From an uncultured Thermodesulfatator sp. (lineage in GTDB: Bacteria; Desulfobacterota; Dissulfuribacteria; Dissulfuribacterales; QOAL01), in contig CAZOMT010000007.1 in assembly GCA_964581255.1 (NCBI GenBank), positions 1 through 29,803 of the forward strand: 29,803 nt of DNA. The letters are read 5' to 3'. The first letter of the stretch is position 1; every line of letters begins with the position of its first letter. This document shows, piece by piece, positions 961-22,712 of this stretch. Both the position numbers and the translations under genes were made by a program. The notes below the pieces were generated by a model. The model worked only from the letters and a program-made list of their open reading frames with translations, had not been told where the DNA came from and did no database searches.

Positions 961-1103
961 CCCCCTCAATCATACACGAACCCAAAAGATTGTTACTCAC
1001 CGCTCGTTTGAGACGCAGAGAACGCAGAGAAGAGATCCTTTCCGGACATGATTAGTGCTTATGTCGGTGGAATTTCTCTATGCCGAGCAAAAGTCAAGTA
1101 AAT

Positions 1104-7575: not shown

Positions 7576-7607
7576 AATGATACTCCCTTTCTCTATCTCC
7601 CCTTTGA

Positions 7608-9725
7608 TCAGTGAAGCCTTCTCCCTTTTGATCTAGGTGGCCTTTTACGTGAGACGATCCTGACGACATAGTCTCTCCCATTATCTTTAAATATCAGGAA
7701 GTCGCCTCCATAGAGGTTTTCCATGACCACTGGTTTTGTATCCCCCTGCCTCTCAATAAATATGTTTCCTTTTTCTGCCCTTATCCTTAGCCCCCTGCCC
7801 CAAGTAGCAGAAAGGGTAAAGGCAGTTTCCTCAAGCTCGGTGAAGGCATCTCTCCTATTGCCACATCTCAAGCTGTCGCCAGACAAGGATTTCTTGACCT
7901 TTTTATGGCATGACATGAGGATGTCTGGTCTACCCATTGGTTTTTCCACAATAAGCTTTCCTGATAATCTGGGCCTTAACACATATGCAAGTGAAAGGAG
8001 GAGTACCACTCCAAGAAGCGCAAAGATGCCCCATACCCATACGGCCCATTTAAGATCAAAAAGACAAAAAGGAGATTCTATCCTCACCCTTTTACCATTT
8101 GCAAGACGCCCTGCAATGACTACTTGGGCAACATACCTGCCCCGTTCCAGGTCAGCCCTTTGTACGTAGTACAGGATCTTCCCATCTACTTTTTTGTGTT
8201 TCAACTCCATTATTGGCAGATGTGTGTTGCCCTGTTTCTTTACCTTATCAAGGTACAGGAAGATTCTTGGAAGCTCCGAGAACCGTGGGTAGTTTCGATG
8301 ATGGGTATCAAACTCGACCACAAAGCTAACGCCCTTCCACAAGATGGGCCACATTACTTGCGTCCCTTCTGGGAGTTTGAATGTGAAGAAGGCCTCCTTG
8401 ATCCTGACCGGCAACACAGGGCTTTTTCTAAGGAAAAAGCCTTTATCATCCCTGGCCTTAATTTGAAGTAGATAGTCTCCCTTTGTGGGCGTTTCCCCTT
8501 TTATGTTTAGCTGAGTAAGGTAGGTACCCTTTCTGGTTCTTTTAAGGCAAAGGGCATTGTCGCTGCTCTGAAAGTCCTTCTTACGGTCAAACCTTAGGGT
8601 CATCTTGCAGGGTCTTTCTGAGATGGCCCCTGTTCGCTCGTCATAGAGCCAGGCCATGACCGTTTTTTTCTCTCTGTCCCAGTATTCCCTGTTTACCAGA
8701 TAACGAAGGTGGACCTGATTTCTTATTAGGGTCGCTACCCTGGGAAAGTCTCCATTGGCCAGGATTACTTCCCATCCCCCGGCAGAGGGCTCCTGTATAA
8801 TAATCAGGTCATAGAATTCTCCTGAACGCCACTGAATATTTGGATTGGATAGGGCATGGTTAAAGTCTATCTCTTTTCCACTAAAGTCTTTCACGCGGAT
8901 GTCTCTGGTAGTACAGAGCGTGTGGCCAGGGATTCTCTTTAGCACCAGAAAGACAAGGCGGTTAGTGCTATCATCTGTCCAGAATACCTTTTGTCCCTTT
9001 AGTTCCTCATATCCCTTTGTGATTCGTAAAACATCCACACAGGTTTCAATCAGCTCTTCCACAGATCTTACAGGAAAGAATCTTCCGCCGCTGGAATCAG
9101 CCATTCGGTTCAAAAGGCCCAAGCCATTTATGCCAGGGAGGAAATCCCTGTTTATCTCTGTATCTCCAAGGCCGATGGTATAAAAGGGTATGATGTCGGC
9201 AAGAGCTTGCCAGTCCTGGATTAACCTTTGGTATGAAGACCTGACATCTCCCCTTGGCTCAAGCTTGCCGTCACTTATTAAAATGACTGCTGGTTTTGCC
9301 TTGCCGGTTCCTCGAAAGAGAGATGCTGTTTCTTGCCTAAGCAGGGTTATTGCTTTTGATATGTCTGTGTGGCGGCCTCTAAAAGAGAAGCCTGACTCAA
9401 GGGCCATCTTAAGGCGGTTTCGTTCGTTCTCGCCTGCTATTGTTTCAGTAGCAATGATCCTTGCATCTGTATCAAAGGTGATAAGGGAAATCCTGTCTCC
9501 TATCTCTGCAAGCTCTATAAATGCCTTAATAGCCTCTTTAGCAAATGTTCTTGATTCTCCCCTGGGGATGCTGCCAGAATTGTCCAGCAAGAATACATAG
9601 TCTACAGGAAGCCTTACCTCCTCTGGCACAGGAGGTGGATGAATGCTTGGAGCCGACTGGCTCCCTTTACAACCAGCGATAATAACTAACAAAATAATAG
9701 GTAGGAATCGGCTTATCTTCCCCAT
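7608..9725 (-). CDS. vWA-domain lipoprotein with a C-terminal transmembrane helix and short cytoplasmic tail
   Basis: The N-terminus MGKISRFLPIILLVIIAGCKGS is a signal peptide with lipobox IAGC. MIDAS motif VFLLDNSGS lies at 9570-9596, and VILISDG follows later. TM helix WAVWVWGIFALLGVVLLLSLAYVL lies at ~7975-8046. It is followed by a ~105-aa basic tail. Confidence 0.75.
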   Translation of the reverse strand: MGKISRFLPIILLVIIAGCKGSQSAPSIHPPPVPEEVRLPVDYVFLLDNSGSIPRGESRTFAKEAIKAFIELAEIGDRISLITFDTDARIIATETIAGENERNRLKMALESGFSFRGRHTDISKAITLLRQETASLFRGTGKAKPAVILISDGKLEPRGDVRSSYQRLIQDWQALADIIPFYTIGLGDTEINRDFLPGINGLGLLNRMADSSGGRFFPVRSVEELIETCVDVLRITKGYEELKGQKVFWTDDSTNRLVFLVLKRIPGHTLCTTRDIRVKDFSGKEIDFNHALSNPNIQWRSGEFYDLIIIQEPSAGGWEVILANGDFPRVATLIRNQVHLRYLVNREYWDREKKTVMAWLYDERTGAISERPCKMTLRFDRKKDFQSSDNALCLKRTRKGTYLTQLNIKGETPTKGDYLLQIKARDDKGFFLRKSPVLPVRIKEAFFTFKLPEGTQVMWPILWKGVSFVVEFDTHHRNYPRFSELPRIFLYLDKVKKQGNTHLPIMELKHKKVDGKILYYVQRADLERGRYVAQVVIAGRLANGKRVRIESPFCLFDLKWAVWVWGIFALLGVVLLLSLAYVLRPRLSGKLIVEKPMGRPDILMSCHKKVKKSLSGDSLRCGNRRDAFTELEETAFTLSATWGRGLRIRAEKGNIFIERQGDTKPVVMENLYGGDFLIFKDNGRDYVVRIVSRKRPPRSKGRRLH

Positions 9726-9742
9726 TATAGGTACTCAGTTCC

Positions 9743-10483
9743 TTATACATTAAGGTGAGACCTTGCTGGCCTCACAGCTATGATGGTTATATTATCCCTT
9801 CCCCCAGCCTCATTTGCCTCTTTGACTAAAATGTCGCAGGCCTCTTGAAGATCATCTGCCTGTTCCATCAAGACTTTTTCTATTTCCTCGTCCTTAAGCA
9901 TGTCTGTCAGTCCATCGGTGCAAAGGATTAACAGCTCACCTGAATAGGCGATTTCCTTGGTTTCTACCTCAACAGCAGGATTTATCCCCAATGCCCGTGA
10001 GATAGTATTGGCCCTTGGGTGGAGCCTGGCTTCCTCCTCAGAGATTTCTCCCTGTGATATAAGCTGAAATACCAAAGAATGATCGTTTGTCAGCCGTTTC
10101 AGTCCCTTTTGTGTAAGCATGTAGGCCCGGCTATCTCCCACATGGGCCAGAAGAAGCCTGCCCTCCCTTATTACTGAAACGACTACTGTGGTTCCCATGC
10201 CATAGAGCGAAGGATCCTCTATTGATTTCTGGTACACTATCTTGTTTGCTTCTTCTACCACCATTTCAAGATCCTTCAGCGTTATCTGCCCATCTGCCAA
10301 GGGGGCAAGAAGACGTGAAATCTCATCTACTGCCAGAGTGCTTGCCACTTCTCCAGCCTGGTGCCCCCCCATTCCATCTGCCACGATAAAAAAAACTCTA
10401 TCCTGTTCCACACAAAAGGCATCTTCGTTATTGATCCTCAATTTGCCCTTATCGCTATTAGCTCCAACTTCAAGCCGAATCAA
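9743..10483 (-). CDS. PP2C-family Ser/Thr protein phosphatase
   Basis: Motifs present: NNEDAF, VADGMGGHQAGEVAS, CTDGLTD and GGRDNITIIAV. A TTG start at 10483 lies 2 nt after the FHA gene stop. There is no in-frame ATG upstream of the conserved N-terminal block. Confidence 0.85.
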   Translation of the reverse strand: MIRLEVGANSDKGKLRINNEDAFCVEQDRVFFIVADGMGGHQAGEVASTLAVDEISRLLAPLADGQITLKDLEMVVEEANKIVYQKSIEDPSLYGMGTTVVVSVIREGRLLLAHVGDSRAYMLTQKGLKRLTNDHSLVFQLISQGEISEEEARLHPRANTISRALGINPAVEVETKEIAYSGELLILCTDGLTDMLKDEEIEKVLMEQADDLQEACDILVKEANEAGGRDNITIIAVRPARSHLNV

Positions 10484-10485
10484 TT

Positions 10486-10839
10486 TCAGGCTCCAAGAAA
10501 TTTCAGCCAGATGGATCGTCCAAGCACAATAATATCTCCTGGACTTACAGCTACCTTGTCTCCAGGGATTGGTGGACTATCATTTTTCTTCCAGATCTCT
10601 GTTTCTGTTCCATCCGTAGCAATTATCAAGGTGCCATTAGTGCTTCCCTTGCCATCGTTTCCGGTGTCAATGACAAAGTAGTTTTCCTTTACATGATCAA
10701 TTACTGCATGTCTCTGGCTGACCATCCCAGCATAGCCAATGGGTATGTCATTTTGGGCTCCGCGGCCAAGGGTCACCCTGTCCCTATTTATTTCTACCTT
10801 TTGGGCATCTTCAGGCCCAAACATCACCTCAAATCTCAT
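10486..10839 (-). CDS. FHA-domain protein (phosphothreonine-binding)
   Basis: 117 aa containing VTLGRGAQNDIPI...VSQRHAVI...GSTNGTLI, the canonical FHA G-R / S-x-x-H / N-G signature. Its start overlaps the upstream kinase stop by 11 nt. Confidence 0.85.
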   Translation of the reverse strand: MRFEVMFGPEDAQKVEINRDRVTLGRGAQNDIPIGYAGMVSQRHAVIDHVKENYFVIDTGNDGKGSTNGTLIIATDGTETEIWKKNDSPPIPGDKVAVSPGDIIVLGRSIWLKFLGA

Positions 10840-12136
10840 TTTTTTTCATCTCCATTATGATTTCCTTGGGTTCTACTCCCCTTTTTCTTAAAAGCCAGGA
10901 AAAGAAGGTCTCCTGCTCAAGGAGATAAAAGGTGAATTCCTTAATTCCCACCCCTTGTGGAAAACGTTCCTTTACTCTCCTTAGTAGGTCTTCCAGTCGC
11001 ATGGACACGGCGCGTGCACTGGGAAAGTATTCGATTCGCTTAAGGCCATTAAAGATCTCCTTTCGTATAAGCTCTGGTGCCACTTTCATCATTAAGAGTG
11101 TAAAAGAAAGGGTGGATTCCCGTTCAAGAAGTGTCCATAGCACATGCTCAAGCCCAAGATAGCAGTTTGAGACCTTTTGCTGTGTAACCGTGAGGCTGAA
11201 GAATAATGCCCTTGTCAGGGTCTGCTGCAAGTCATCTTTAAGGCCGATAAAGAGCTCTTCTTTTTCCTTATCCCATTTTTCAAGAAAGGCATTTTCCCTG
11301 TCTGTCTTGAGTAGGGTCTTACCTGGCGAGACAGACAAATCAGCATGTCGAGGTTTTTCTGTATTCCAGTACACAGTTGAGATATTCATGCTCAGCAGCC
11401 TGACACAATCCCTTGCCAACTCTTCAGCAGAACAGCGTTTTTCAGGTACTATGTTACAGGCCTTTTGAATAATTTCTTTCAGATGGTCTGGGATATTGAA
11501 AAAATCTATACTTTCATGCGGTAGGACCTCCTTTGGCCTGCCTCCCAGCATTTCATACAAACATACGCCAAGACTGTATACGTCGCTTGCAGGTGAGTGA
11601 TTTGCTCCCTGGAATATCTCAGGAGCGGTGTATGTTTGTTTAAACGGAATGCTCCTAAATTCTTCTGCCTTTGAGGCAAACCCCATATCCCCCAATTTGG
11701 GTAAACCAGAAGCATCAAAAAATATGTTCTCCGGACACACATCCCTATGGATCATACCTATGGCGTGCATATCACCTAAGGCACAAGCTATTGAATATAG
11801 AACCTGTATCGCATCGTTCACTTCCATACCACATTGGATCCTCTGTCTGAGATCTCCTCCTTCCATATATTCTAAAAGTATATGAAGGTAAGGGGACGAA
11901 AACTCGCTTGCTCCCAGAAATTTCACGAAATAGGGTTTATTGCTGAAAAGGCCCATTATCATGACTTCATTAAAGAAATCTGTATAATCAAGCTCTGGGG
12001 AATATAGCTTTAATGCTACGAGGCCAAGCCTTTTGCAATCGGCAAGATAGACTTGGGAAAAGCCTCCCTTCCCAAGAGATCTTATTATTACACAGTCACC
12101 AATTTTGTCTCCGATGCTCAAGAGATATTCATCCAT
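10829..12136 (-). CDS. Hanks-type Ser/Thr kinase with atypical catalytic motifs, fused to a C-terminal Clp_N-like double repeat
   Basis: G-loop LGKGGFSQV, VALK lysine, catalytic loop HRDVCPEN (Cys where Lys is usual), DMG instead of DFG, and YTAPE. The C-terminal ~135 aa (about 10832-11235) has two repeats: YLGLEHVLWTLLERES...VAPELIRKEI and IKEFTFYLLEQETFFSWLLRKRGVEPKEI. These match the Clp N-domain repeat pattern (EHLLLALL...L...GV....L). Confidence 0.75.
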   Translation of the reverse strand: MDEYLLSIGDKIGDCVIIRSLGKGGFSQVYLADCKRLGLVALKLYSPELDYTDFFNEVMIMGLFSNKPYFVKFLGASEFSSPYLHILLEYMEGGDLRQRIQCGMEVNDAIQVLYSIACALGDMHAIGMIHRDVCPENIFFDASGLPKLGDMGFASKAEEFRSIPFKQTYTAPEIFQGANHSPASDVYSLGVCLYEMLGGRPKEVLPHESIDFFNIPDHLKEIIQKACNIVPEKRCSAEELARDCVRLLSMNISTVYWNTEKPRHADLSVSPGKTLLKTDRENAFLEKWDKEKEELFIGLKDDLQQTLTRALFFSLTVTQQKVSNCYLGLEHVLWTLLERESTLSFTLLMMKVAPELIRKEIFNGLKRIEYFPSARAVSMRLEDLLRRVKERFPQGVGIKEFTFYLLEQETFFSWLLRKRGVEPKEIIMEMKKNEI

Positions 12137-12151
12137 CCTCCACCTTCAAGG

Positions 12152-12181
12152 TTGCAATTTATTATCTAATTATGTTATAAT
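12152..12181 (+). promoter_or_regulatory. Putative sigma70-type promoter in the divergent intergenic region
   Basis: TTGCAA (12152-12157), 18-nt spacer, TATAAT (12176-12181). It sits in a 92-bp AT-rich gap between divergent kinase genes, ~48 nt upstream of ATG 12229. This is sequence pattern only. Confidence 0.35.
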
Positions 12182-12228
12182 GAATTTTATCATTTTTTAA
12201 CAAAATAAAGCAAGTAGATTTGTTCCTT

Positions 12229-15200
12229 ATGAAGGTGCGGCAAGATGTAGGAACTGATGTATCAGTTGCTTTCTGTAGTACACATTCGTGGTTTTCAGAA
12301 AGCGGCATTATCTATCCAATCAATATCCAGGTCTCATCTAATGGCGCGGATATTCCTATCAGCTACCGTATAGGCTCTCCAATCAAGGGTACTTTCCTTA
12401 GGGTGGGTGACCCAATCGGAGGAAACAGGTGGCGAGTTCTTAAGCGCCTGGGATCAGGCACAACAGGCGTTGTCTATCTTGCTTTATCCCAGACAAATGG
12501 AGAACTGGTTGCTGTTAAAACAATAAAGCAGGATCTTGCAGTCGGGTCTGAGTCCGACATTAGCGACTTTTTTTATTATGAAGCCCTTGCCTGGACACAG
12601 GTAGGACGTCATCCAAATGTCTTATGGGCCAGAGATGTGGTAAGTGTTGCCAAGAAGGTATGGGTGAGCATGGATTATATTCCTGCTCCAAAGGGGCTGT
12701 ATGGAAGTTCGCTTCGCAATTGGATCAAGTTTCGACGTCCTTTCAGCCTGAAGCAGATTCTTCTTTGGGCAGTCCAATTTTGCCTTGGGATGGAACACGC
12801 ATTGCGAAACGGGATTAAGTGTCACAGGGATATAAAACCTGGAAATATCCTCATAGATCCGGAGAAAAGGGTAAAGATAGCTGACTTCGGCCTGGCTGTA
12901 TATACGGATAGAAGAAGGTCAGGAGTCGTAAGGTGTGGCACCCCCCAATATATGTCTCCGGAACAGTTCGAAGGTGTGGACGAGGTGGATGTGCGAAGCG
13001 ATATATACAGCTTCGGTGTGGTCTTATTCGAGATGTCCACAGGAAACCTTCCCGTTTCACCACCCCCGCATTTAAAAGAACAATACTTCCTTGCCCACCC
13101 AGATTTTCGGAGGCTCTCATGGGAGCTTTGGCGCAAGGTACACAGGGAACAATCCCCTGCCAACATTGGCGGGCCTTTGGGGCCGATCATACTCAAATGT
13201 CTTGAGAAGGCCCCACACCACAGGTTTCAGAGCTTTGCCGAGCTACGCAGTGCGCTCTTGCAGCTTTGCCGCAGGCTGGGTATCGCTGTTGAGTTACCTG
13301 AGGTTACAGGACCTTCAACACATGAACTTAACGTCAGTGGAGTCCAGCTACTGGCGCTTGAGATGTTTGATGAGGCCATGGGATATTTTGACAAGACCCT
13401 TGAGCGAGAAACAATGAACATGCACGCCATAAATGGTAAAGGCCTTTGTCTTTATTACCTTGGTCAACATGAAAAAGCCATCAAGTGCTTTCAGAAGGTC
13501 CTTGATCAAGACGGTCAGGATATTTGTGCCCTGGTGGGAAAGGGACTTTGCCTACAGGGCAAAGGTGATTTCGAGCAGGCTGGAAAGTTTTTTCAAGAGG
13601 CGCTTTACGTAAATTCTTCTCTACCCCATGTATGGTATCACATGGGCGAGAACTTTTTGGGCCTTGGGCAGCAGAGGAAGGCAAGGAAATGTTATTTAAA
13701 GGCTCTTAGTCTTCTTGTAGCCCTTAAATGCCAAGACGAGGCCTGTACGCTGATAAAGTCCATTGAAAGATACTTTCCGGGTGACATCCAGCTTATGCTG
13801 TTTCACATCTGGGCGCATAGGTTAAGAGGACAGGTGGAAAACAAACTGATGGATTATTTGTCTATAACCAAAGACAGTTTTGTCGCCCCTGAGGATGATC
13901 CTGAATTTGCCGGGATACTTGCTGGAACATATAAAAGGTTATGGGCTGCAGCACCTGAAAAAAACATGGATAAACTTGAAGAGGCCTATAGGCTCTACCA
14001 TACCGCATGGCTTGGCTCTGGCAAGACCAATACCTATGTGGGCATCAACGCGGCTACACTTGCCCTGTTTCTTGGAAGAGCCGAGGAGTCGAGAGAGACC
14101 GCCAGAGAAATAAAAAAGATATATGAAAACCGCAGCCTCAATGACCTTACAGATTCTGAATCTTCATATTCAAGCTATTGGGATCGGGCGACCCTTGCTG
14201 AAGCTGAACTTCTTCTAGGACACCTTGGCAAGGCACGGCGCATCTACCAGGAAGTCATGGACCTTTACAGGGAAAAAAGGACCTATGTGGATAGCTCAAT
14301 GGATCAGATAGACCTAATCCTTCCTCGCCTTGGATTGTCGCTGAATGCAATAGATTTCTGTGGCCAGCAACCCAGCTCGCCTGGGGTAAGAAGTGTGAGA
14401 TTTGGGATTACTGGCCACAGGGCACTGGAGGATCCAGCCAGGGTTTCAGAGGGTCTAAAGATAGCTGTTGAGACCATCAGGCGTAAACTTCCCCCTGATA
14501 CCGTCTTTGAGATCATCTCACCTCTGGAAGAGGGTGCTGACAGGATTGCGGCAAATGTTATGTTGAAAGAATTTCAAGCCTTGCTTTGGGCAGTCTTGCC
14601 ATTTGATCCAAAGGATTACATGGCACATTTTGGTGGCAGTAATTCCCAATCCACAAAGGAATTCAGGAAATTTCTTAATCAGGCCGAAGAACTGACTATA
14701 CTATCTCCAGCAAACGATATGAACGAGGCCTACAGCAATGCTGGACGGTATGTAGTGGACAACTGCGACATCCTTATAGCCGTATGGGATGGCAAGAAGG
14801 CCAGGGGAGAAGGTGGGACTGAAGAAATCGTAGCCTATGCCAGGGACAAAGGGCAACCGCTTATCTGGATTGAATCCGTCCCCCCCTGTGGCATTCATTT
14901 TGAGAGATTAGACAGGCTTAACACTTTAGACTTTACAAAAAGGAATTTTGATATGTACAAACCAAAACCTATTGACACCTCCAATATCCATCTGTCTGAT
15001 GATCTTCTTGAGCTTACGGAGCTTCTTGCTGAAAACGCCCATGAGAACTGGGCAAAAAAGCGTATGGATGAAGGCTGGACTTATGGCCCCGAGCGGGATG
15101 ATGCCGCAAAGAAACACCCAGACCTTATACCATATACAGAGCTTTCTGCATCAGAGAAGGAATACGACCGCAAGATGGCCCTTGAAACCCTGAAGGCAAT

Positions 15201-15234
15201 AATCGCATTAGGATACAAGATCTGGAAAGAATAG
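12229..15234 (+). CDS. Multidomain Ser/Thr kinase: kinase - TPR - DUF4071-like helical region - SLOG (YpsA-like) - RyR domain
   Basis: Start is ATG 12229, with an alternative TTG at 12220.
- Kinase (~12429-13270): LGSGTTGVVY, VAVK, HRDIKPGN (12823), DFG, GTPQYMSPE.
- TPR-like repeats: ~13320-13720.
- Helical region (~13750-14290): AGTYKRLW...YVGINAATLALFLG, resembling the MAP3K-TRAF-binding/DUF4071 signature.
- SLOG/YpsA-like (~14386-14880): GITGHR, SPLEEGADRIAANV, AVLPF, DILIAVWDGKKARGEGGTEEIVAYA.
- RyR repeat (~15025-15210): AENAHENWAKKRMDEGWTYGPERDDAAKKHPDLIPYTELSASEKEYDR. Confidence 0.75.
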   Translation: MKVRQDVGTDVSVAFCSTHSWFSESGIIYPINIQVSSNGADIPISYRIGSPIKGTFLRVGDPIGGNRWRVLKRLGSGTTGVVYLALSQTNGELVAVKTIKQDLAVGSESDISDFFYYEALAWTQVGRHPNVLWARDVVSVAKKVWVSMDYIPAPKGLYGSSLRNWIKFRRPFSLKQILLWAVQFCLGMEHALRNGIKCHRDIKPGNILIDPEKRVKIADFGLAVYTDRRRSGVVRCGTPQYMSPEQFEGVDEVDVRSDIYSFGVVLFEMSTGNLPVSPPPHLKEQYFLAHPDFRRLSWELWRKVHREQSPANIGGPLGPIILKCLEKAPHHRFQSFAELRSALLQLCRRLGIAVELPEVTGPSTHELNVSGVQLLALEMFDEAMGYFDKTLERETMNMHAINGKGLCLYYLGQHEKAIKCFQKVLDQDGQDICALVGKGLCLQGKGDFEQAGKFFQEALYVNSSLPHVWYHMGENFLGLGQQRKARKCYLKALSLLVALKCQDEACTLIKSIERYFPGDIQLMLFHIWAHRLRGQVENKLMDYLSITKDSFVAPEDDPEFAGILAGTYKRLWAAAPEKNMDKLEEAYRLYHTAWLGSGKTNTYVGINAATLALFLGRAEESRETAREIKKIYENRSLNDLTDSESSYSSYWDRATLAEAELLLGHLGKARRIYQEVMDLYREKRTYVDSSMDQIDLILPRLGLSLNAIDFCGQQPSSPGVRSVRFGITGHRALEDPARVSEGLKIAVETIRRKLPPDTVFEIISPLEEGADRIAANVMLKEFQALLWAVLPFDPKDYMAHFGGSNSQSTKEFRKFLNQAEELTILSPANDMNEAYSNAGRYVVDNCDILIAVWDGKKARGEGGTEEIVAYARDKGQPLIWIESVPPCGIHFERLDRLNTLDFTKRNFDMYKPKPIDTSNIHLSDDLLELTELLAENAHENWAKKRMDEGWTYGPERDDAAKKHPDLIPYTELSASEKEYDRKMALETLKAIIALGYKIWKE

Positions 15235-15252
15235 GCCGGTACAGATGGTCTA

Positions 15253-15281
15253 TTGACAATTTGCCTATCAAAGACTACAAG
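15253..15281 (+). promoter_or_regulatory. Possible internal promoter upstream of the TIR gene
   Basis: TTGACA (15253-15258), 17-nt spacer, TACAAG (15276-15281; 4/6 match to TATAAT). It lies in the 93-bp gap after the kinase stop. The -10 element is weak, so this is tentative. Confidence 0.2.
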
Positions 15282-15327
15282 TCGTTTTTATAGTCTTTAG
15301 TATAGCCACGCCTTGGGAGGGGAGGAG

Positions 15328-16371
15328 ATGGGTTCATATCGGATATTCATCAGCTATTCCCACGAAGACAGAGGCCTGGTTGAGACTGTTGTCGGCATCT
15401 TAGAGGAAAATGGTCTTAGACCAATGTGGGATGCGGGTTTTACGTGGGGCCTGGGCTTTCACGAACAGATAAAGGATTTTATTGCCCATGCCCACGTATT
15501 CATTCCCATCATAACCAAGACCTCAAGCAACAGAGGTTGGGTGCATCAAGAGATTGGTTATGCCTTGGCTTTGAACATCCCGATTCTTCCCTTGACTGTT
15601 GGGGAAGTTCCTCCTGGTCAGATGCTTCAGCACCTGCAGTCTATATCATGGGACGGTAACGACATAAAAGGCCTAAAGATACAACTCACTAAGGCTACGT
15701 TTGATTCCTTAGTTAAGATTATCGGTCGGAACTCCCGTGCCCTGTTCGAATGTGCAGAACACCATGAAGAACGTACCTCCATGATCATCGAGTATGCCAC
15801 TAAGGTACGCAACATGAATGCCTATGGCCATGTCCGTTTGAAAGGTGCATTGAGTTCTTTTCAGATCCCAGACAAACCCTGTTTTCACCCTGCATGGAAG
15901 GAACGTTACAACTATGAGCCCAACCGTTATCATTGCCAGCAGCTTCGCAGGGAACGAAAGGTTCTGGAAGAACATGCCAGGGAGAAGGGTTGCAGCCTTA
16001 TAATTGATCCATATGTTGATTACAGAAATTATGGAGTTTCAGCAAGAAGGGCCCGTCTTGAGACACTCCTTGAATTTCTGGAGTCCATAGATGCTGAAAA
16101 GATCCGTGTTGCCATCCATAAGGACATGCCAAAAGGCCAGAATCTGACCATTGTTGGAGACTGGTTTGCTGCTGAAGCTGTTTCAGTGGCAGTGGGAGGA
16201 GGGTATCAACAGACCATTTTTACGCGGCATGCACCTACTATCCGGGAGCAGATCAAGATATTTGACGAGGAGCTGGAATTTGTGCTCAAGAGTAATGGAA
16301 TTGATGTGGACTCTTCAAGGGATGAAGCTATAGCCTGTATAAAGAAAATACTTGAAGGAATACCTAAGTAA
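15328..16371 (+). CDS. TIR-domain protein with an uncharacterised ~220-aa C-terminal domain
   Basis: ATG 15328 has GGAGG (15316-15320) 7 nt upstream; the ORF track's TTG 15313 is less likely. N-terminus YRIFISYSHEDRGLVE...HVFIPIITKTSSNRGWVHQEIGYALAL is a bacterial TIR pattern (FISYSH.D ... W...E). It includes the glutamate at the position of the TIR NADase catalytic Glu. I see no recognisable motifs in the C-terminal region. Confidence 0.8.
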   Translation: MGSYRIFISYSHEDRGLVETVVGILEENGLRPMWDAGFTWGLGFHEQIKDFIAHAHVFIPIITKTSSNRGWVHQEIGYALALNIPILPLTVGEVPPGQMLQHLQSISWDGNDIKGLKIQLTKATFDSLVKIIGRNSRALFECAEHHEERTSMIIEYATKVRNMNAYGHVRLKGALSSFQIPDKPCFHPAWKERYNYEPNRYHCQQLRRERKVLEEHAREKGCSLIIDPYVDYRNYGVSARRARLETLLEFLESIDAEKIRVAIHKDMPKGQNLTIVGDWFAAEAVSVAVGGGYQQTIFTRHAPTIREQIKIFDEELEFVLKSNGIDVDSSRDEAIACIKKILEGIPK

Positions 16372-16918: not shown

Positions 16919-17890
16919 ATGCATCCTTTGGAAAACAATCAGGAAGAGAAGTTTCTCAACTATGAAAGGATACAGTTTGAGGGAAAGTGGCTTTGGGTAC
17001 CGTCTCCTGTAGAGCTTCCTATAAGGCGTATAATCGACAGGGATGACATAATGGAGAAGGCCCTTGCAGCCTGGGCCAGGCTGGATGGTCTTCCACCCCT
17101 GAATTTTCGTTTCTACGGCCCTCATGGAACTGGCAAAAATGCCATTGTCTACAGGCTGGCACAGCTTCTAAAAAAGGATCTTTACATTATAAATGGGCAT
17201 GAGGAGCTTGGGCCAGAGGACATCGCGTGTTCTGCCACCATGACCTCAAGCCAAACTATAGAGTACGTGGCCTCTCCCCTTTTTGCAGCTATGCTAAGGG
17301 GTGGGATCTGCTTCTTTGACGAGATCGGCAAGGCCCCTTCAAGGGCCCTCGCCCCTCTTGCCTCTGTCCTGGATGACCGCCGCACCCTCACCTCGGTCCT
17401 TGCCGGAATTCATCTTAAGGCTCACCAGGATTTCCTTTTCTGTGCAGCCCTCAATGAAGACGAGGAAGGGGGCTTTGGGCTTCCGGGCTTTATAGACGAG
17501 CGGACAAGGCCAGCCATCTATGTAGGGTGTCCAGATGTTAGTACCCTGGAAAAGATTTTGAGGAGTCATCTGCCAGGGGCATCAAACCTGTGGTTTACGG
17601 TCTTTCTGGAGGAGTTAAGAGACAAGGAGATTTCCCCAAGGGTTGCTATTATCTTGCTTAGCTACGCATACAGGCTGTCCCGGGCAGATGGCCGCGGGCT
17701 TACCAGAAGGCACATAAGAGGCTTTCTCAGGCGGGCCTGGGAGGACCTAGAAAAGGGGAAGACAGACTATTTCGAGGAACGGGAAGATCAAGATTGTCAG
17801 GATGATCAAGATATAGACGAGGGGGAAGACGATGATGTGGACGGGGTGGACCTCAATTTGCTCGTGCAGGAAGATGAAGCCCTTCATTGA
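16919..17890 (+). CDS. MoxR-like / AAA_5-type AAA+ ATPase with an acidic C-terminal tail
   Basis: AGGAGG (16905-16910) lies 8 nt before ATG 16919. Walker A is FYGPHGTGKNAIV, with Asn where Thr/Ser is canonical. Walker B is ICFFDEIG. FCAALNE is a possible sensor-1 Asn. The tail is EDQDCQDDQDIDEGEDDDVDGVD. Confidence 0.7.
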   Translation: MHPLENNQEEKFLNYERIQFEGKWLWVPSPVELPIRRIIDRDDIMEKALAAWARLDGLPPLNFRFYGPHGTGKNAIVYRLAQLLKKDLYIINGHEELGPEDIACSATMTSSQTIEYVASPLFAAMLRGGICFFDEIGKAPSRALAPLASVLDDRRTLTSVLAGIHLKAHQDFLFCAALNEDEEGGFGLPGFIDERTRPAIYVGCPDVSTLEKILRSHLPGASNLWFTVFLEELRDKEISPRVAIILLSYAYRLSRADGRGLTRRHIRGFLRRAWEDLEKGKTDYFEEREDQDCQDDQDIDEGEDDDVDGVDLNLLVQEDEALH

Positions 17891-19979
17891 GTATCCTGGG
17901 TACGGCAGGCTCTTTGTACTTCCCTACATAAGGAGCAGGCTAGTATTTGCCCAACTTGCGGCAAGAGCCCTTGAAGAGGAGAGGTTCGACCAGGTGCTTG
18001 TGGACCTTCCCTACTTTTTAAACAATGGAAGCACACTTGAGTCCGCCTTAGGACACTTTCCCCTTGTAAGCATACTAATATTAAAAAGGAACGATTCCAG
18101 CCATGTCTTTTTCCCCTTTGTGCCTAGTGACGCAGGTTGTATCTCTGCCCGGATTGCCATGGAAAGATCTATCCCTTTTGAGTGTATAGATGACTCAAGA
18201 CTGCCGTACTTTCCGGAAGGATCCATGTTTCGTCCCTCTGTGACTGGACTTCCAGACGACTATCTTGTCTTTGATATGGGACTTAAAGAATATTTTGCCC
18301 CTTTCTGGAGCCACCTTGACTATCTTTGGGAGAAAGCTTCTCACATTGAGCGCTATTTTACCTCCCTTCGTATAGCTGTTCTTGGAGAGCGTCTTAAAAA
18401 GGCCCTTTCACAAGGGGAAAAGGTATTATTTGTGTGTGAAACCAGTCTTTGGCAGGCTATAAAGAGGTGGCTTGATGGCGAGAGCACACCTCCAAATCCT
18501 ATACACATAAACTGCAAGGACCTTCAAGGCGCTCTTGTCTTTGAGAGTCCACTAAACCTCTGGTCTCGAGGCTTGTTGGATGACTATCCTTTGCTGGTCT
18601 TTAAGTTTTGGAAGAGTCTTGAGGACAAGGAGGGATCATCCTTTGACAAACTTGATGCCTTCAAAAGGGTCATGGAGGAACTGCTTCAACCGGAAAGTCT
18701 CACAAAGGCAGGGAATCCTTCTATCCGTCTTCTTATTATCTTTAAGCAGTACCTCAAGACCCAAATGGTGTCCCATAAGAGGGTGATCCCTCATCCCACA
18801 GACCACCTTTTTGAGAGTGCAAAAAGCTGTATGGGTATGGACATGGCCACACACATTGCAAGAAGGTTCCTTTATTATTTTTCTCCTCTGGATTTTATAA
18901 TCTCTATGTCCCAGTACCCTCTTTTTCTAGTCAGACAGGATGAAATAGTCCCAAGCGAAGGTGCCTCTGAGCTGCCAGACCTTACAGATGCAAGGTACTA
19001 CTATTTCTTTGATATTTCTTCAGGTCCTTATCACTTTAAGCCAGGCCATCCAGAGGAAAATCTGGTATACTGGAAAAATGTTATATTGCCTTCCATGACC
19101 AGAAAAGAATTGGTCGAGCTGAACAGAAACGGAGGAGAGTGCACGATAAGATGGACCGTGGCTCAGGACTATGGGCTTCATGCCAGGGTATGTTCTTATG
19201 TGAAGGAAAAGGTAACAAGGGCAGCGGCAACTGTCAGGATAAGGCGTAGCTGGGGACAGATGATGGATGGGATCCACTGGAAGGCTACACTTTGTGCTTT
19301 AGCAAGGGGTGAAAAGGCAGTATACGTAAAGGAGAGAGCCGGAAGGAAGGCAGGTTTTCCAAGGATGAATGATTTTACTCCGGTGGTGTTTCTCTTTTCC
19401 AGGGAGGCCGACAGATCTTACTCTTGTGTCATACACGACAGTAACGAGAAGCTAAGGAACATGGAGCTTGATGGCTATTATCCAAATTCAGATACATATC
19501 CTCAGGGTGATCTCGATATGGTCTACTCAGTATTTTATACTATAAGTAGCAATAGAACATTTTGGAGCCCCCACTTTGCAAGAGAGCACTTAACATCCAT
19601 TGCCATGCTGTGCACTATAAGAGCGATGGGATCTGAGAGATATCAAGCCATCACCAGGCGGCCAAAAAGGTATCAGTGCCGCATACACCCAAGGGACGAT
19701 AAAGAATTGCAAGACTTTTCCCTCTTGGAAAAGGGGGTTGCCTGGGCCGTAAAGTATGCAGAGGATGTGGTAGTGGTGGTGCACTATCCGGGATGGAGTC
19801 CTTCTGCAAGGCTATTAAGTTTTGCTCGGAAAAAGGGGGTAATGCTTGAGTGCATTTCCATGTCCTGTCTTTCAAAACGCCTTGTAAGGAGGCTTCGACA
19901 TTTGCATTTTGTGTCCACAGCCTTGAAAAGACACCCTGAATATGAGAGGATTGTGAGGAGATTTTTGCATTTGGTGTGA
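17832..19979 (+). CDS. Large uncharacterised protein translationally linked to the MoxR-like ATPase
   Basis: Uninterrupted ORF. ATG 17832 has GAGG 9 nt upstream and overlaps the upstream gene by 59 nt. Alternative ATG 17874 (MKPFIEYPGYG...) overlaps by 17 nt. I found no motif I can name with confidence. Its size and position next to a MoxR-type ATPase recall the YehL/YehM (DUF5682) pairing, but that is unverified. Confidence 0.55.
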   Translation: MMWTGWTSICSCRKMKPFIEYPGYGRLFVLPYIRSRLVFAQLAARALEEERFDQVLVDLPYFLNNGSTLESALGHFPLVSILILKRNDSSHVFFPFVPSDAGCISARIAMERSIPFECIDDSRLPYFPEGSMFRPSVTGLPDDYLVFDMGLKEYFAPFWSHLDYLWEKASHIERYFTSLRIAVLGERLKKALSQGEKVLFVCETSLWQAIKRWLDGESTPPNPIHINCKDLQGALVFESPLNLWSRGLLDDYPLLVFKFWKSLEDKEGSSFDKLDAFKRVMEELLQPESLTKAGNPSIRLLIIFKQYLKTQMVSHKRVIPHPTDHLFESAKSCMGMDMATHIARRFLYYFSPLDFIISMSQYPLFLVRQDEIVPSEGASELPDLTDARYYYFFDISSGPYHFKPGHPEENLVYWKNVILPSMTRKELVELNRNGGECTIRWTVAQDYGLHARVCSYVKEKVTRAAATVRIRRSWGQMMDGIHWKATLCALARGEKAVYVKERAGRKAGFPRMNDFTPVVFLFSREADRSYSCVIHDSNEKLRNMELDGYYPNSDTYPQGDLDMVYSVFYTISSNRTFWSPHFAREHLTSIAMLCTIRAMGSERYQAITRRPKRYQCRIHPRDDKELQDFSLLEKGVAWAVKYAEDVVVVVHYPGWSPSARLLSFARKKGVMLECISMSCLSKRLVRRLRHLHFVSTALKRHPEYERIVRRFLHLV

Positions 19980-20037
19980 GGTGCATTGCCCGCCATAATT
20001 TGTAGGTATCAGTAGGAAAAAGAGGAGGGATGCAGGG

Positions 20038-22677
20038 ATGCATGATGGATTAAGTGAAGTGAAAAGGAGGGGTGATCCTGAAGCCATACTCTCCATTTGG
20101 CGTACAGAGGTCATTAAAGGGCCAGAGGTGTCTTCGCTACAGAAACCTATTGGTGACTGGCCGGATCAGATAAGTAGAGAGGCAGAAGAACGTGTTCGAG
20201 GACTAGGGGCAGATATCCCATGGGGCTATGGCCAAAAGTTTGGGGAGAGGGATTTCAGAGTCACAGGGCTGAGGGCAGGTGGGATAGGAGTGGTCCTCCT
20301 TGTTGAGTCCGACACCCCTGAGGGGAAAAGGTTTTATGCGGCAAAGACCCTCCTTCCTTTTCTAAAACCCGAATATCTTAAAAAATCTTTACAAGAGCAG
20401 GAGCGTATCTCCCAGGCCTTTCTTGAAGAGGCCCTCCCCTGGCTTGAGATGGGCCAGCATCCTCACATCGTTCCTGTGCTTCTTCTTGAGAAGGTTGTTC
20501 ACCTGGGGCTTAACAGGAGCATTCCATTTATCTTTTCTCTGTTCATGCCAAGGGGAAGCCTTAAAGAATATTTAGCTCAAAGGGGCAGGTTAAGTCTAAG
20601 GGAGTCCTTGGCCCTTGGCATCCAGCTTTGTGACGGGCTTGTCCATGCCTACGGACATGGCCTTGATGCCCATCTCGATCTTAAACCAGAGAATATCATG
20701 GTCCATGACGACGGGGTCTTTAGAATTACGGACTTCAGCTCAGGTGTAATTGGCACTCCTGGCTACATGGCCCCCGAGCAGGTACCGGCCCTGTGGCAAA
20801 AACGCGGGACAGGGTTTGTCACCAATGATATTTCAATGGATCACAGGGCGGACCAGTTCGCCCTTGGCATTGTTTTGCTTGAGGCCTTGAATGGAGAGCA
20901 TCCATTTCCCATCTGCTTTGACGCTTGCGGAAGTATGGGATGGGCCAGGGAGTATCTGGACAAGGGAGTAGGCAGCCTCAAAGACAACAGCAGCATCCCT
21001 GAGGGTTTGAAGAAGATTCTTTCCCGCATCCTGTCCCTGGCACCTGATGACCGGTTTCCTGATATGTCCGTTCTAAAGGCCGAGTTGCTTGATCTGTATG
21101 AGAGGGAATTTGAGCGCTACAAGGCACCAGGAGTCGAACTAGATTATTCGGCCAATTGGTGCTTTGAAAGGGGGATGGCGTTTTACACCCTGGGCCGTTA
21201 TGCCTCTGCCGAGGAGCCATTTAATGAAGCCCTTTTTGTCTTTCGATCAATGCCAGGTACAGAGCTTGAGCAGGCTATCTGCAAGGTTAGTCTTGGGACT
21301 GTATTGGGATTGATCGGTCGTTTTGAGGAAGCAGTGTCATTATATGAAGATGCGCTTATTATATATCGCTCAATACCTGGTACAGAACTCAAGCAGGCAG
21401 CTTGCATAATACACCTTGGGCTTATCTATTCAGATACAGGTCATTTTGAAGAAGCGATCTCAGCATATGAGGAGGCCCTTAGCATTTTTCGATCAATCCC
21501 AGGAACAGAGTTTGAGCAGGCTAAGTGCATGGGCAATCTTGGAAATGTCTATCAAAAAATCGGTCTCTTTGAGGATGCGATGTCTATCTATAGAGAGGTA
21601 CTTAGTATCTACCGTCTGCTCCCAGGAACAGAGTTTGACCAGGCTATCTGTACAATGAACTTTGGGACCAGCTGTTCTCAGGCAGGTCATTTTGAAGAAG
21701 CGATGTCAGCATATGAGGAGGCCCTTGGCATTTTTCGATCAATCCCAGGAACAGAATTTTATCAGGCTATCTGCACAATGGAGTTTGGACTCGTTTATTT
21801 GGGGAGCGGTCATTATGAGGAATCGCTACCTTACTTAGAGGAAGCCCTTAGCATCTATCAATCAATTCCAGGCACTGAGCTTAAGCAGGCTAACTGCATG
21901 AAAAATATAGGAGATGCCTTTGACAGGACTGGTCGTTTTGAGGAAGCAATGTCATACTTAGAAGGAGCTTTTAGTATTTATAGCTTGATTCCCGGTACTG
22001 AAATTAATCAGGCTAAATGCATTATGAGCCTTGGGAACGTGTATTCGAATATCGGTCATTTTGATGAAGCGATTTCAAAATATGAGGAGGCACTTGATAT
22101 CTATAGTTCAATTCCAGGCACTGAGCTTAACCAGGCCCACTGCACAGTGAATCTTGGAAATGTTTATTTAGACATGGATTGTCCTGAGGAAGCAATATCA
22201 GCCTTTGAGGAGGCATTTAGTATCTATAGCTCGATCCCTGGTACAGAGCTTTACCGGGCTACCTGCAAAAAGAAGCTTGGGGATGCCTATTGGCAGACAG
22301 ATCAGTTTGATAATGCATATTCAGCTAATTTATACGCTATTAATATTTATAGTTCAATTCCAGGTAAAGAGCACGATTTGGCTATCTGTATAGCAAATCT
22401 TGGAAATGTGTATGCAGACTTAGGTTACATTGAAGAAGCGCGTTCAGCCTATGAAAAGGCCCTTGGTATGTTTTGTTCAATCTCTGATACAGAACTTGAA
22501 CAGGCGCAATGTATGTGCAGCTTGGCCGTCATTTACTATCAAGAAATAGAGGATCCCGATAAGGCCTTCCGGTATGCTGTTTACGCCCTAAAGCTCTGTG
22601 AGCCTTTTCCCCCGGAAAAAACAGCCAAGATAAGAGAGGTCTGTAAGACGGTTTTAGAACGTCTGGGTCTAATCTGA
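20038..22677 (+). CDS. Non-RD Ser/Thr kinase-like domain fused to 11 tandem TPR units
   Basis: Kinase (~20260-21090): LRAGGIGVV, YAAKT, HLDLKPEN (HRD changed to HLD), DFS in place of DFG, GTPGYMAPE. From ~21140 to 22600 there are 11 repeats of a ~41-42-aa unit: EEA.S.YEEAL.IYRSIPGTE..QA.C..NLG.VY...G.F. Confidence 0.8.
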   Translation: MHDGLSEVKRRGDPEAILSIWRTEVIKGPEVSSLQKPIGDWPDQISREAEERVRGLGADIPWGYGQKFGERDFRVTGLRAGGIGVVLLVESDTPEGKRFYAAKTLLPFLKPEYLKKSLQEQERISQAFLEEALPWLEMGQHPHIVPVLLLEKVVHLGLNRSIPFIFSLFMPRGSLKEYLAQRGRLSLRESLALGIQLCDGLVHAYGHGLDAHLDLKPENIMVHDDGVFRITDFSSGVIGTPGYMAPEQVPALWQKRGTGFVTNDISMDHRADQFALGIVLLEALNGEHPFPICFDACGSMGWAREYLDKGVGSLKDNSSIPEGLKKILSRILSLAPDDRFPDMSVLKAELLDLYEREFERYKAPGVELDYSANWCFERGMAFYTLGRYASAEEPFNEALFVFRSMPGTELEQAICKVSLGTVLGLIGRFEEAVSLYEDALIIYRSIPGTELKQAACIIHLGLIYSDTGHFEEAISAYEEALSIFRSIPGTEFEQAKCMGNLGNVYQKIGLFEDAMSIYREVLSIYRLLPGTEFDQAICTMNFGTSCSQAGHFEEAMSAYEEALGIFRSIPGTEFYQAICTMEFGLVYLGSGHYEESLPYLEEALSIYQSIPGTELKQANCMKNIGDAFDRTGRFEEAMSYLEGAFSIYSLIPGTEINQAKCIMSLGNVYSNIGHFDEAISKYEEALDIYSSIPGTELNQAHCTVNLGNVYLDMDCPEEAISAFEEAFSIYSSIPGTELYRATCKKKLGDAYWQTDQFDNAYSANLYAINIYSSIPGKEHDLAICIANLGNVYADLGYIEEARSAYEKALGMFCSISDTELEQAQCMCSLAVIYYQEIEDPDKAFRYAVYALKLCEPFPPEKTAKIREVCKTVLERLGLI
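21140..22600 (+). repeat. Intragenic tandem repeat (~123-126-bp units) encoding the TPR array
   Basis: Eleven (S/L)IPGTE-type units. Some units are near-identical at the nucleotide level. For example, ~75 nt starting at 21439 and at 21685 (ggtcattttgaagaagcgat.tcagcatatgaggaggccctt.gcatttttcgatcaatcccaggaacaga) differ at only a few positions. Confidence 0.8.
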
Positions 22678-22712
22678 GGAAACCCGGGCAGTGGTTTTGG
22701 TAGAGTTTAACC

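Follow-up and report, generated by a model that had tools for sequence, protein, structure and literature searches.

A TIR gene beside a multidomain Ser/Thr kinase with SLOG and RyR domains: a possible Thoeris-like signal/sensor pair with a kinase output

TIR enzymes turn NAD+ into signals of the ADP-ribose (ADPR) type, and proteins of the ryanodine receptor (RyR) fold either bind 2'/3' cyclic ADPR (2'/3'cADPR) and cADPR, with nanomolar affinities, or cleave these nucleotides. In type I Thoeris, the SLOG domain of ThsA senses the TIR-made 3'cADPR (10.64898/2025.12.03.692087). Experiments published in 2026 showed that RyR-domain proteins bind TIR-made cADPR isomers (PMC13232231; 10.64898/2026.06.04.730250): residues of the phage protein RyDEP bind and cleave 2'/3'cADPR (PMC13232231), and the phage protein RyR Tad binds 3'cADPR at about 43 nM (10.64898/2026.06.04.730250). 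Here we analyse a pair of genes on a contig of an uncultured Thermodesulfatator sp. (CAZOMT010000007.1, positions 1 to 29,803; this whole stretch of 29,803 nt is called the window). Gene A codes for a Ser/Thr kinase that also carries SLOG and RyR domains, and gene B, directly downstream, codes for a TIR protein. That the two form a Thoeris-like signal/sensor pair with a kinase output is, in our judgement, a little better than an even chance. Signalling from a TIR enzyme to a sensor is already established in Thoeris; the kinase output and the RyR-bearing partner would be what is new here.

Genes A and B lie on the same strand, 93 nt apart, and no promoter-like or terminator-like match is found in the gap between them. 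The pair is present in three independent assemblies. The two genes and their domains are the following.

12229..15234, + strand: gene A, putative sensor/effector, a multidomain Ser/Thr kinase of 1001 aa (kinase-TPR-TPR-S-SLOG-RyR)
12433..13230, + strand: Hanks-type Ser/Thr kinase domain (Pfam Pkinase, 2.9e-40, residues 72-337)
13327..13719, + strand: canonical TPR repeats (Pfam TPR_1, TPR_2, TPR_12 and TPR_8, residues about 370-500)
13738..14319, + strand: ASK1-like helical region, in which TPR-S (PF20308) overlaps MAP3K_TRAF_bd (PF13281, the former DUF4071) (Pfam)
14383..14922, + strand: YpsA-clade SLOG domain with the motifs GITGHR, EGAD and WDGK..GGTEE (homologue alignment and structure model)
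14956..15225, + strand: single RyR repeat (PF02026) with an adenine-stacking Trp and His/Asp/Arg ligand residues (Pfam)
15328..16371, + strand: gene B, putative signal generator, TIR plus C-terminal domain (C-domain), 347 aa (protein P0029)
15343..15657, + strand: TIR domain with the catalytic Glu E75 in WVHQEI (Pfam TIR_2, 1.6e-16)
15685..16368, + strand: conserved alpha/beta C-domain of ~230 aa, fold family unassigned (homologue alignment and model)

The original prediction, made from the sequence, had placed in a protein of ~1000 aa a Hanks kinase, TPRs, a DUF4071-like helical region, a YpsA-type SLOG domain and a terminal RyR repeat, next to a TIR protein with a Glu at the NADase position. 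All of its sequence-level statements hold at their coordinates. From its ATG, gene A codes for 1001 aa, matching the open reading frame (ORF) calls in public assemblies; an alternative TTG start at 12220 would give 1004 aa, and the Pfam residue positions for gene A refer to this longer translation. The catalytic motifs of the kinase are complete: the Gly-loop, Lys97 of VAVK, Glu118 of alphaC, Asp201 of HRD, Asn206 and Asp219 of DFG are intact, and K97, E118, D201, N206 and D219 are invariant in the alignment of five gene A homologues. Against the PADLOC models, the kinase scores with mad6 (1.3e-58) and PD-T4-6 (2.7e-47). The several TPR families are followed by TPR-S (residues 507-615, E 5e-14, 53.2 bits vs cutoff 27.6) and MAP3K_TRAF_bd (residues 560-700, E 5.7e-9, 35.9 bits vs curated cutoff 24.1), the latter bearing out the DUF4071-like region. 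Conservation of this helical region is strong in all five homologues, and the region is also found with SLOG and RyR in proteins without a kinase.

The RyR repeat at the C-terminus matches PF02026 over residues 913-1002 with 122 bits (E 1.2e-35; cutoff 27.4). A phmmer search of the PDB retrieves RyR1 and RyR2 with whole-sequence E-values of about 1e-62 to 1e-65, summed over four repeats; the best single-repeat E is about 1e-18, and the matches cover repeats of RyR1-3. The bacterial protein 3NRT is matched with E 5e-31 in the same search. The alignment with repeat 1 of RyR2 is ungapped. Six residues of gene A, numbered on the 1001-aa protein, stand at known RyR ligand positions (H938, W941, R945, R956, H963 and D980), and their equivalents are as follows.

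H938: H75 of RyDEP, H129 of RyR Tad
W941: W882 of RyR1, W78 of RyDEP, W132 of RyR Tad
R945: R886 of RyR1
R956: R897 of RyR1, K147 of RyR Tad
H963: H100 of RyDEP, H154 of RyR Tad
D980: D117 of RyDEP, D171 of RyR Tad

W882, R886 and R897 of RyR1 hold ADP/ATP (PMC13642953; PMC12627627). In the five full-length gene A homologues H938, W941, R945 and D980 are invariant, and the RyR hidden Markov model (HMM) scores stay high in all of them (136-175 bits).

The SLOG domain was assigned via homologues and structure, because direct Pfam and PDB sequence searches found no significant match: residues 700-920 of gene A match no Pfam family even at E <= 10, and phmmer and profile searches of PDB sequences return only a sub-threshold match to DprA. 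Homologous to the region are 28 stand-alone proteins, 138-251 aa long, of which one is labelled DUF1273/YpsA by its source; the motifs TGHR, LAEGAD and WDGK..G.GGT are common to them. Weak profile matches among the 29 aligned sequences (the window and the 28 homologues) are to YAcAr (8), YpsA (7) and DprA (5). The AlphaFold model of the region, built on the homologue alignment, reaches a predicted local distance difference test score (pLDDT) of 94.8. Its best fold match is Bacillus subtilis YpsA (2NX2, E 6.7e-8, template modelling score (TM) 0.68), and further matches are ShosA, DprA, the ThsA SLOG with 3'cADPR (7UXS, E 1e-4, TM 0.44) and TRPM5. Homologues and model thus establish the fold that had been read from the letters as YpsA-type SLOG. 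They place this SLOG in the YpsA clade rather than in the STALD clade of ThsA, and therefore a ThsA-type pocket cannot be assumed. In two of the five gene A homologues (P0152 and P0153) the SLOG motifs have decayed to GVIGDL/TSAE and GIIGAS/NKAE, the GGT is lost, and the SLOG HMM scores are 64 and 46 bits vs 172-187 bits in the others. Because RyR stays highly conserved in these same proteins, RyR, not SLOG, is the constant and most conserved candidate sensor of gene A. With SLOG and RyR, the C-terminal part of gene A holds two folds of the nucleotide-binding type.

Gene B has an ATG preceded by GGAGG; a TTG at 15313 is the less likely start. The TIR assignment is upheld by the TIR_2 match and by the structure model of gene B (pLDDT 89.9), which resembles the TIR domains of SARM1, SPARTA, TIR-STING, BtpA and a B. 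cereus TIR protein. BLASTP aligns WVHQEI of gene B with WVHKEI of SARM1 (query sequence identical to PDB chains over residues 558-700), so that Glu75 corresponds to E642, the established catalytic residue of SARM1. A Glu at this position is invariant in 37 members of the gene B family, which comprises at least 729 proteins alignable over full length. A phmmer search with the TIR domain against PDB sequences found nothing. The C-domain has about 38 invariant positions in 12 homologues; it gives no match in Pfam, NCBIfam or PDB profiles, and the gene B model gives no fold match beyond its TIR part. An APAZ-like reading of the C-domain was rejected, as the long foldseek alignments to SPARTA TIR-APAZ reach only TM about 0.3, no better than the TIR-only matches. 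A role in trigger sensing or oligomerisation is possible for this domain. Gene B is thus a predicted catalytically competent TIR protein, a member of a widespread TIR plus C-domain family.

A mechanism for the pair can be proposed. Upon a trigger, possibly sensed by its C-domain, gene B would convert NAD+ to an ADPR-derived nucleotide (a cADPR isomer or a related molecule), a step that we infer by analogy with the TIRs of Thoeris, SARM1 and plants. In gene A, the RyR repeat would bind this product, helped or tuned by SLOG as a second or modulatory site. The TPR-S/ASK1-like scaffold would pass the binding event to the N-terminal Hanks kinase, and the kinase switched on would be the output, taking the place held by RelA_SpoT, a cyclase, a STAND ATPase or SLATT in sister proteins. 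Phosphorylation would then arrest the cell or the invader, perhaps, and quite tentatively, via the FHA, PP2C, kinase, ClpB-like and tubulin-vWA neighbours. The original prediction had also proposed a kinase that reads a TIR product. Its domains, the TIR Glu and the adjacency at the domain level stand, but its order of sensors, with SLOG first, is reversed here, as RyR is the better conserved of the two.

Among 5.8 billion protein clusters, gene A has only four full-length relatives, with identities of 55, 50, 43 and 41%. Because they are only 41-55% identical, the four are independent lineages. Their gene neighbours are listed below.

L007: DUF4062-TPR gene 29 nt downstream of the gene A relative, then a DUF4062-NACHT gene
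L008: two DUF4062-NACHT genes, the first 45 nt downstream of the gene A relative, then a TIR_2 gene
L009: Asp-protease-TIR_2 gene 367 nt downstream of the gene A relative
L010: DUF4062-NACHT gene three genes upstream of the gene A relative

A TIR_2 or DUF4062 gene is within three genes of all four relatives and directly downstream in three of them. DUF4062 has been experimentally shown to be a TIR-like NADase (10.64898/2026.05.01.722283). With the window included, a gene of the TIR superfamily lies at most three genes away in 5/5 gene A lineages, and it is never the same one. These neighbours could also be read with the flow reversed. The TPR-S of gene A would detect the invader, and the kinase would phosphorylate and activate the TIR or DUF4062 NADase, the real effector by NAD+ depletion, with SLOG and RyR only reading NAD+, ADPR or ATP:ADP as feedback. 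Indeed, TPR-S is annotated as a sensor repeat (Pfam PF20308), the genes adjoining gene A homologues are DUF4062-STAND NADases, which are NAD+-depleting effectors (10.64898/2026.05.01.722283), kinase-TIR_2 fusions occur in the same neighbourhoods (L129 and L016), and the RY12 domain of RyR1 has been proposed as an ADP/ATP sensor (PMC13642953). However, a reversed flow leaves unexplained the TIR family beside kinase-less RyR/SLOG proteins with RelA_SpoT, STAND or SLATT. Furthermore, STAND NADases have their own sensor repeats, and the Pfam scan of gene B shows neither a phospho-acceptor motif nor an FHA domain. We hold a reversed flow to be quite unlikely.

The neighbours of the gene B family bear on the signal/sensor reading at a larger scale. 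The survey covered 69 genomic loci of the family, drawn from many bacterial phyla and a few archaeal ones, 64 of them with an intact gene, and these were scanned with local HMMs for SLOG, RyR and TIR; all 10 of 10 matches of the iterated TIR HMM were TIR_2 in Pfam. Genes were called simply as the longest ORF, by which some small RyR genes were lost, and the local SLOG HMMs miss LSDAT-type SLOG; the counts given here are minimum values. Of the 64 loci, 25 contain a RyR or SLOG gene; it lies within three genes in 21/64 and directly adjacent in 14/64. The adjacent genes are on the same strand as the TIR gene with gaps of about 0-190 nt. The frequency of RyR matches by gene distance from the family member is 14/118, 6/106, 5/97, 4/90, 1/80 and then 1/177, and the difference between distance 1 and distance >= 5, a background control internal to the fetched loci, is significant (Fisher p = 3.4e-6). 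In an all-against-all clustering of the neighbours, RyR proteins are the largest partner cluster (23 loci, mostly at position -1). An independent precomputed annotation agrees with this pattern: one locus (L164:1-15047) has within 15 kb around the TIR family gene the architectures RelA_SpoT-LSDAT-RyR, TrkA_N-RyR and Sigma54-activator-RyR, together with ADP-ribosylglycohydrolase, NUDIX and DUF4062-WD40 genes, a dense NAD/ADPR-centred neighbourhood.

The partners carry a range of output domains. Proteins of 829-871 aa with RelA_SpoT, TPR, an LSDAT_prok SLOG and RyR adjoin the TIR family in four loci (L093:3268-5754, L133:2597-5155, L114:4999-7533 and L164:8104-10719); they have the same syntax as gene A with another output domain and another SLOG clade. 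AAA/STAND-RyR partners are about 910-930 aa long, and AAA-RyR-SLOG proteins also occur (Pfam). The same SLOG family as in gene A is fused to SLATT_1 (P0325 and L122). In a permuted order, RyR, TPR-S/MAP3K_TRAF_bd and SLOG are joined to an adenylate/guanylate cyclase (L041:86-2362, L087:2196-4529 and L079:2044-4290). TrkA_N-RyR is a further architecture, and kinase-TPR-TPR-S-SLOG-RyR is that of the window and of protein P0409. RyR and this SLOG clade are fused in both orders and also occur as separate adjacent genes (L024 and L080). A metagenome scan with the SLOG+RyR alignment gave mostly RyR-only proteins and few SLOG+RyR loci. As read from these sequences, the recurrent syntax combines a variable output domain with SLOG, RyR or both, and a TPR or TPR-S scaffold is often present. 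This fits the pattern expected for a ligand sensor controlling interchangeable effectors, with the kinase of the window in the putative effector slot.

The same partners can be considered as terminators or buffers of the signal. RyR and/or SLOG, the latter with its LOG-like GGT-x-D/E, would then degrade or sequester the TIR product as an off-switch or threshold, and the kinase would be driven by TPR-S. RyDEP is an inverting glycosidase using H75 and D117, and other homologues are high-affinity sponges (PMC13232231; 10.64898/2026.06.04.730250); gene A retains their counterparts H938 and D980, neither of which varies among its homologues. Some SLOG superfamily members, in the LOG and YpsA clades, are N-glycosidases (PMC9503650). 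In addition, TIR genes of diverse types have a small stand-alone RyR gene as immediate neighbour, an arrangement fitting a regulator better than an effector, and L164 joins the TIR family with ADP-ribosylglycohydrolase and NUDIX genes. However, the repeated fusion of RyR/SLOG to RelA_SpoT, SLATT, cyclase and kinase is the syntax of a sensor controlling an effector. Moreover, 6/8 tested RyDEP homologues bind without cleaving despite the conserved residues (PMC13232231), and thus the dyad is no predictor of catalysis. A terminating or buffering role is therefore considered unlikely.

Several further observations were made in the TIR and RyR loci. Small stand-alone or C-terminal RyR genes are beside TIR genes in L017:254-1391, L028:3017-4525, L032:2103-3712, L083:8016-9626, L059:5032-7437 and L043:560-4502, and the TIR types are TIR-STAS, X-TIR-Sel1, X-TIR, TIR-X, SIR2_2-TIR and TIR-WD40. 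Of 80 RyR loci, 20-23 contain one or more TIR genes, and in 9 a TIR gene is the immediate neighbour. Such small RyR genes may serve the host as regulators or belong to prophages as anti-Thoeris genes. Proteins of about 690-790 aa with a phosphofructokinase (PFK) fold adjoin the TIR family in L162:8081-10225, L163:8100-10169, L096:9048-11189 and L102:4727-7093. They are directly downstream in L162, L163 and L096, some have a weak N-terminal TIR, and they represent a second partner type without RyR or SLOG. At the locus of the closest gene B homologue (L004:2938-13969) there are four other TIR genes, with a metallophosphatase gene 19 nt upstream of the homologue and, 40 nt downstream of it, a TIR-STAND-TPR gene. 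A fusion of FtsZ/Tubulin, FtsZ_C and TIR_2 (685 aa, L122:5859-7913) is directly upstream of a TIR family member and beside SLOG-SLATT_1; the window has a Tubulin_2 gene. Ser/Thr kinase-TIR_2 fusions are found in TIR/RyR neighbourhoods (L129:1617-2861 and L016:662-3052), one of them also with an FGE-sulfatase domain.

A number of points weigh against reading genes A and B as a signal/sensor pair. The exact pair is unique to the lineage of the window. No RyR or SLOG gene is found in the flanks of 39/64 gene B family loci, and some of these have a (TIR-)PFK-domain partner instead. The closest homologue of gene B (64%) lies in a TIR-rich island and has no kinase, SLOG or RyR neighbour. Part of the co-occurrence of RyR and TIR is at the level of islands, because the genes belong to conflict islands with an abundance of TIR, STAND and WD40 genes; around small RyR genes the TIR frequency declines only slightly with distance (8.5%, 7.3%, 6%). 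Two of the five gene A homologues have degenerate SLOG motifs, as described above, and the RyR repeat could destroy a signal instead of sensing it, because the RyDEP glycosidase uses the same His/Asp pair for catalysis. Gene A might not need a TIR input at all, having its own predicted sensor region in TPR-S. Finally, the DUF4062 enzymes tested to date yield linear ADPR, not a cyclic signal (10.64898/2026.05.01.722283). Conservation of the neighbourhood had been named in the original prediction as a check on the pair. It is found at the domain level (14/64 adjacent, 25/64 nearby, 5/5 kinase lineages), not at the level of orthologues.

The genes around the pair are the following.

12152..12181, + strand: promoter-like site TTGCAA-18-TATAAT with extended TG (10/12 positions) in the divergent intergenic region upstream of gene A
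4723..12136, - strand: flanking genes for Tubulin_2 (950 aa), vWA (705 aa), PP2C, FHA and Ser/Thr kinase
16919..25079, + strand: flanking genes for MoxR-like AAA_5, a 715-aa protein of unknown family, kinase-TPR (879 aa) and ClpB-like AAA+

Promoter-like matches in the region upstream of gene A are no commoner than in shuffled sequence, and the site at 12152..12181 is weakly supported. The remainder of the window is, by its gene content, a conflict-system island. Gene sets like its flanks also surround the gene A homologues of L007 and L009, and a ClpB-like gene also adjoins the homologue of L007. Fusions of Clp_N occur with an FHA protein in L008, with a kinase in L009 and with P0153, itself a gene A homologue. 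Functional coupling of gene A to the FHA, PP2C, kinase, ClpB-like and tubulin-vWA neighbours is plausible, because similar genes recur around gene A homologues and Clp_N is fused to relatives.

This setting also suggests that genes A and B may be independent neighbours, gene A being part of a Tubulin_2/vWA/PP2C/FHA/kinase/ClpB-like system and gene B a single-gene TIR defence in the same conflict island. Conflict-system genes make up the entire window, Tubulin_2, vWA, PP2C, FHA and ClpB-like genes accompany gene A homologues, TIR genes are frequent throughout such islands, and the context of the closest TIR homologue is different. However, the association of the TIR family with RyR/SLOG depends on distance and shows the same strand and short gaps across many phyla. 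Furthermore, a TIR-superfamily gene is within three genes in every one of the five gene A lineages, and RyR domains are experimentally linked to TIR products (PMC13232231). Independence of the two genes seems improbable to us.

At the left end of the window (7-1745) are two DUF4143/AAA_14 ATPase genes, one per strand, the first of which runs off the contig end. The + strand flank extends to 28799 and also holds genes for a radical-SAM-like Fer4_12 protein and DO-GTPase2. A near-identical contig of a different sample (L003:5678-10514 vs window 17832-22677) has two ORFs where the window has one: 367 + 357 aa in place of the 715-aa ORF, and 710 + 167 aa in place of the 879-aa kinase-TPR ORF. A frameshift, an assembly difference or pseudogenisation could account for these splits.

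Returning to the signal/sensor pair, neither a kinase effector nor a RyR-bearing effector is mentioned in a 2025 systematic survey of TIR systems (10.64898/2025.12.03.692087). Both 2026 RyR preprints are confined to phage proteins and mention neither a kinase nor SLOG (PMC13232231; 10.64898/2026.06.04.730250), and no paper in the literature searched combines the terms 'RyR domain', 'SLOG' and 'bacteria'. A 2026 Nat Commun paper on RY12 reports AlphaFold3 predictions suggesting that prokaryotic RyR domains may sense nucleotides. A wider proposal is more tentative and falls somewhat short of an even chance: cellular RyR repeats, alone or with SLOG, may be native receptors of TIR-made ADPR-type messengers in widespread prokaryotic immune modules, in which one TIR plus C-domain family feeds kinase, RelA_SpoT, cyclase, STAND ATPase and SLATT outputs, the window being the kinase member. 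Host RyR proteins beside TIR genes would supply the missing receptor side of the phage RyR arms race. If the pair works as proposed, protein phosphorylation would be a new Thoeris-type effector mechanism, and bacterial immune effectors would be extended to nucleotide-gated phosphorylation and, by extension, to RelA_SpoT and cyclase outputs. The link between cADPR and the ryanodine receptor in animals would gain a prokaryotic immune ancestry, with RyDEP and RyR Tad as captured copies of host receptors. This could explain the domain tuned to adenine-ribose nucleotides in animal ryanodine receptors, and it bears on the long-debated cADPR-RyR question. The two-gene pair offers a concrete and cheap test system.

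A comparison with type I Thoeris (ThsB TIR and ThsA SIR2-SLOG) shows the same layout of effector and sensor, a TIR protein with the catalytic Glu adjoining a protein with a SLOG fold. Their outputs are different, a Hanks kinase in gene A and SIR2 in ThsA. The SLOG of gene A is closer to YpsA (TM 0.68) than to ThsA (TM 0.44), gene A adds the RyR repeat and the TPR-S/ASK1-like region, and gene B adds the C-domain of ~230 aa. PADLOC gives only weak ThsB matches (best 2.6e-6) and no ThsA match for the pair, and the NCBIfam Thoeris models are far below their cutoffs (type III ThcB4, 26 bits vs 220). Membership in a named defence family of PADLOC or NCBIfam was rejected, since only generic kinase and weak ThsB similarity is seen.

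The kinase-based phage defences PD-T4-6, mad6, PglW and Stk2 share with gene A the Hanks kinase domain and a possible cell-arrest output. Their similarity to gene A is limited to the kinase domain, and none is known with TIR-nucleotide gating, SLOG or RyR. ASK1 (MAP3K5) also joins a kinase to a helical repeat region of the PF13281 type. This resemblance is a lead only, as the domain order differs and gene A is bacterial, with no TRAF or thioredoxin partners. YpsA and the SLOG-SLATT conflict proteins have the same SLOG clade and motifs (GxD and the Gly-rich GGT), with fusions to SLATT_1 and cyclase. These and related SLOG conflict-system proteins were reportedly described by Burroughs et al. 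in 2015. The cyclase fusion has already been noted for the YpsA family (PMC6459960, Fig. 1 legend), and the searchable literature contains no description of a YpsA-type SLOG fused to a Ser/Thr kinase or systematically paired with RyR.

Repeat12 (RY12) of the animal ryanodine receptor has very strong sequence similarity to the RyR repeat of gene A, which keeps the equivalents of W882, R886 and R897. Gene A has one repeat instead of a tandem pair and no ion channel, and its repeat is fused to SLOG and a kinase. The anti-Thoeris RyR proteins of phages, the RyDEP glycosidase and the RyR Tad sponge, have in common with gene A the PF02026 domain and His-x-x-Trp ... His ... Asp at identical spacing (PMC13232231; 10.64898/2026.06.04.730250). 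They are small viral counter-defence proteins, whereas the RyR of gene A is the C-terminal domain of a 1001-aa host kinase beside a TIR gene, and thus it would serve the defence, as a receptor or regulator.

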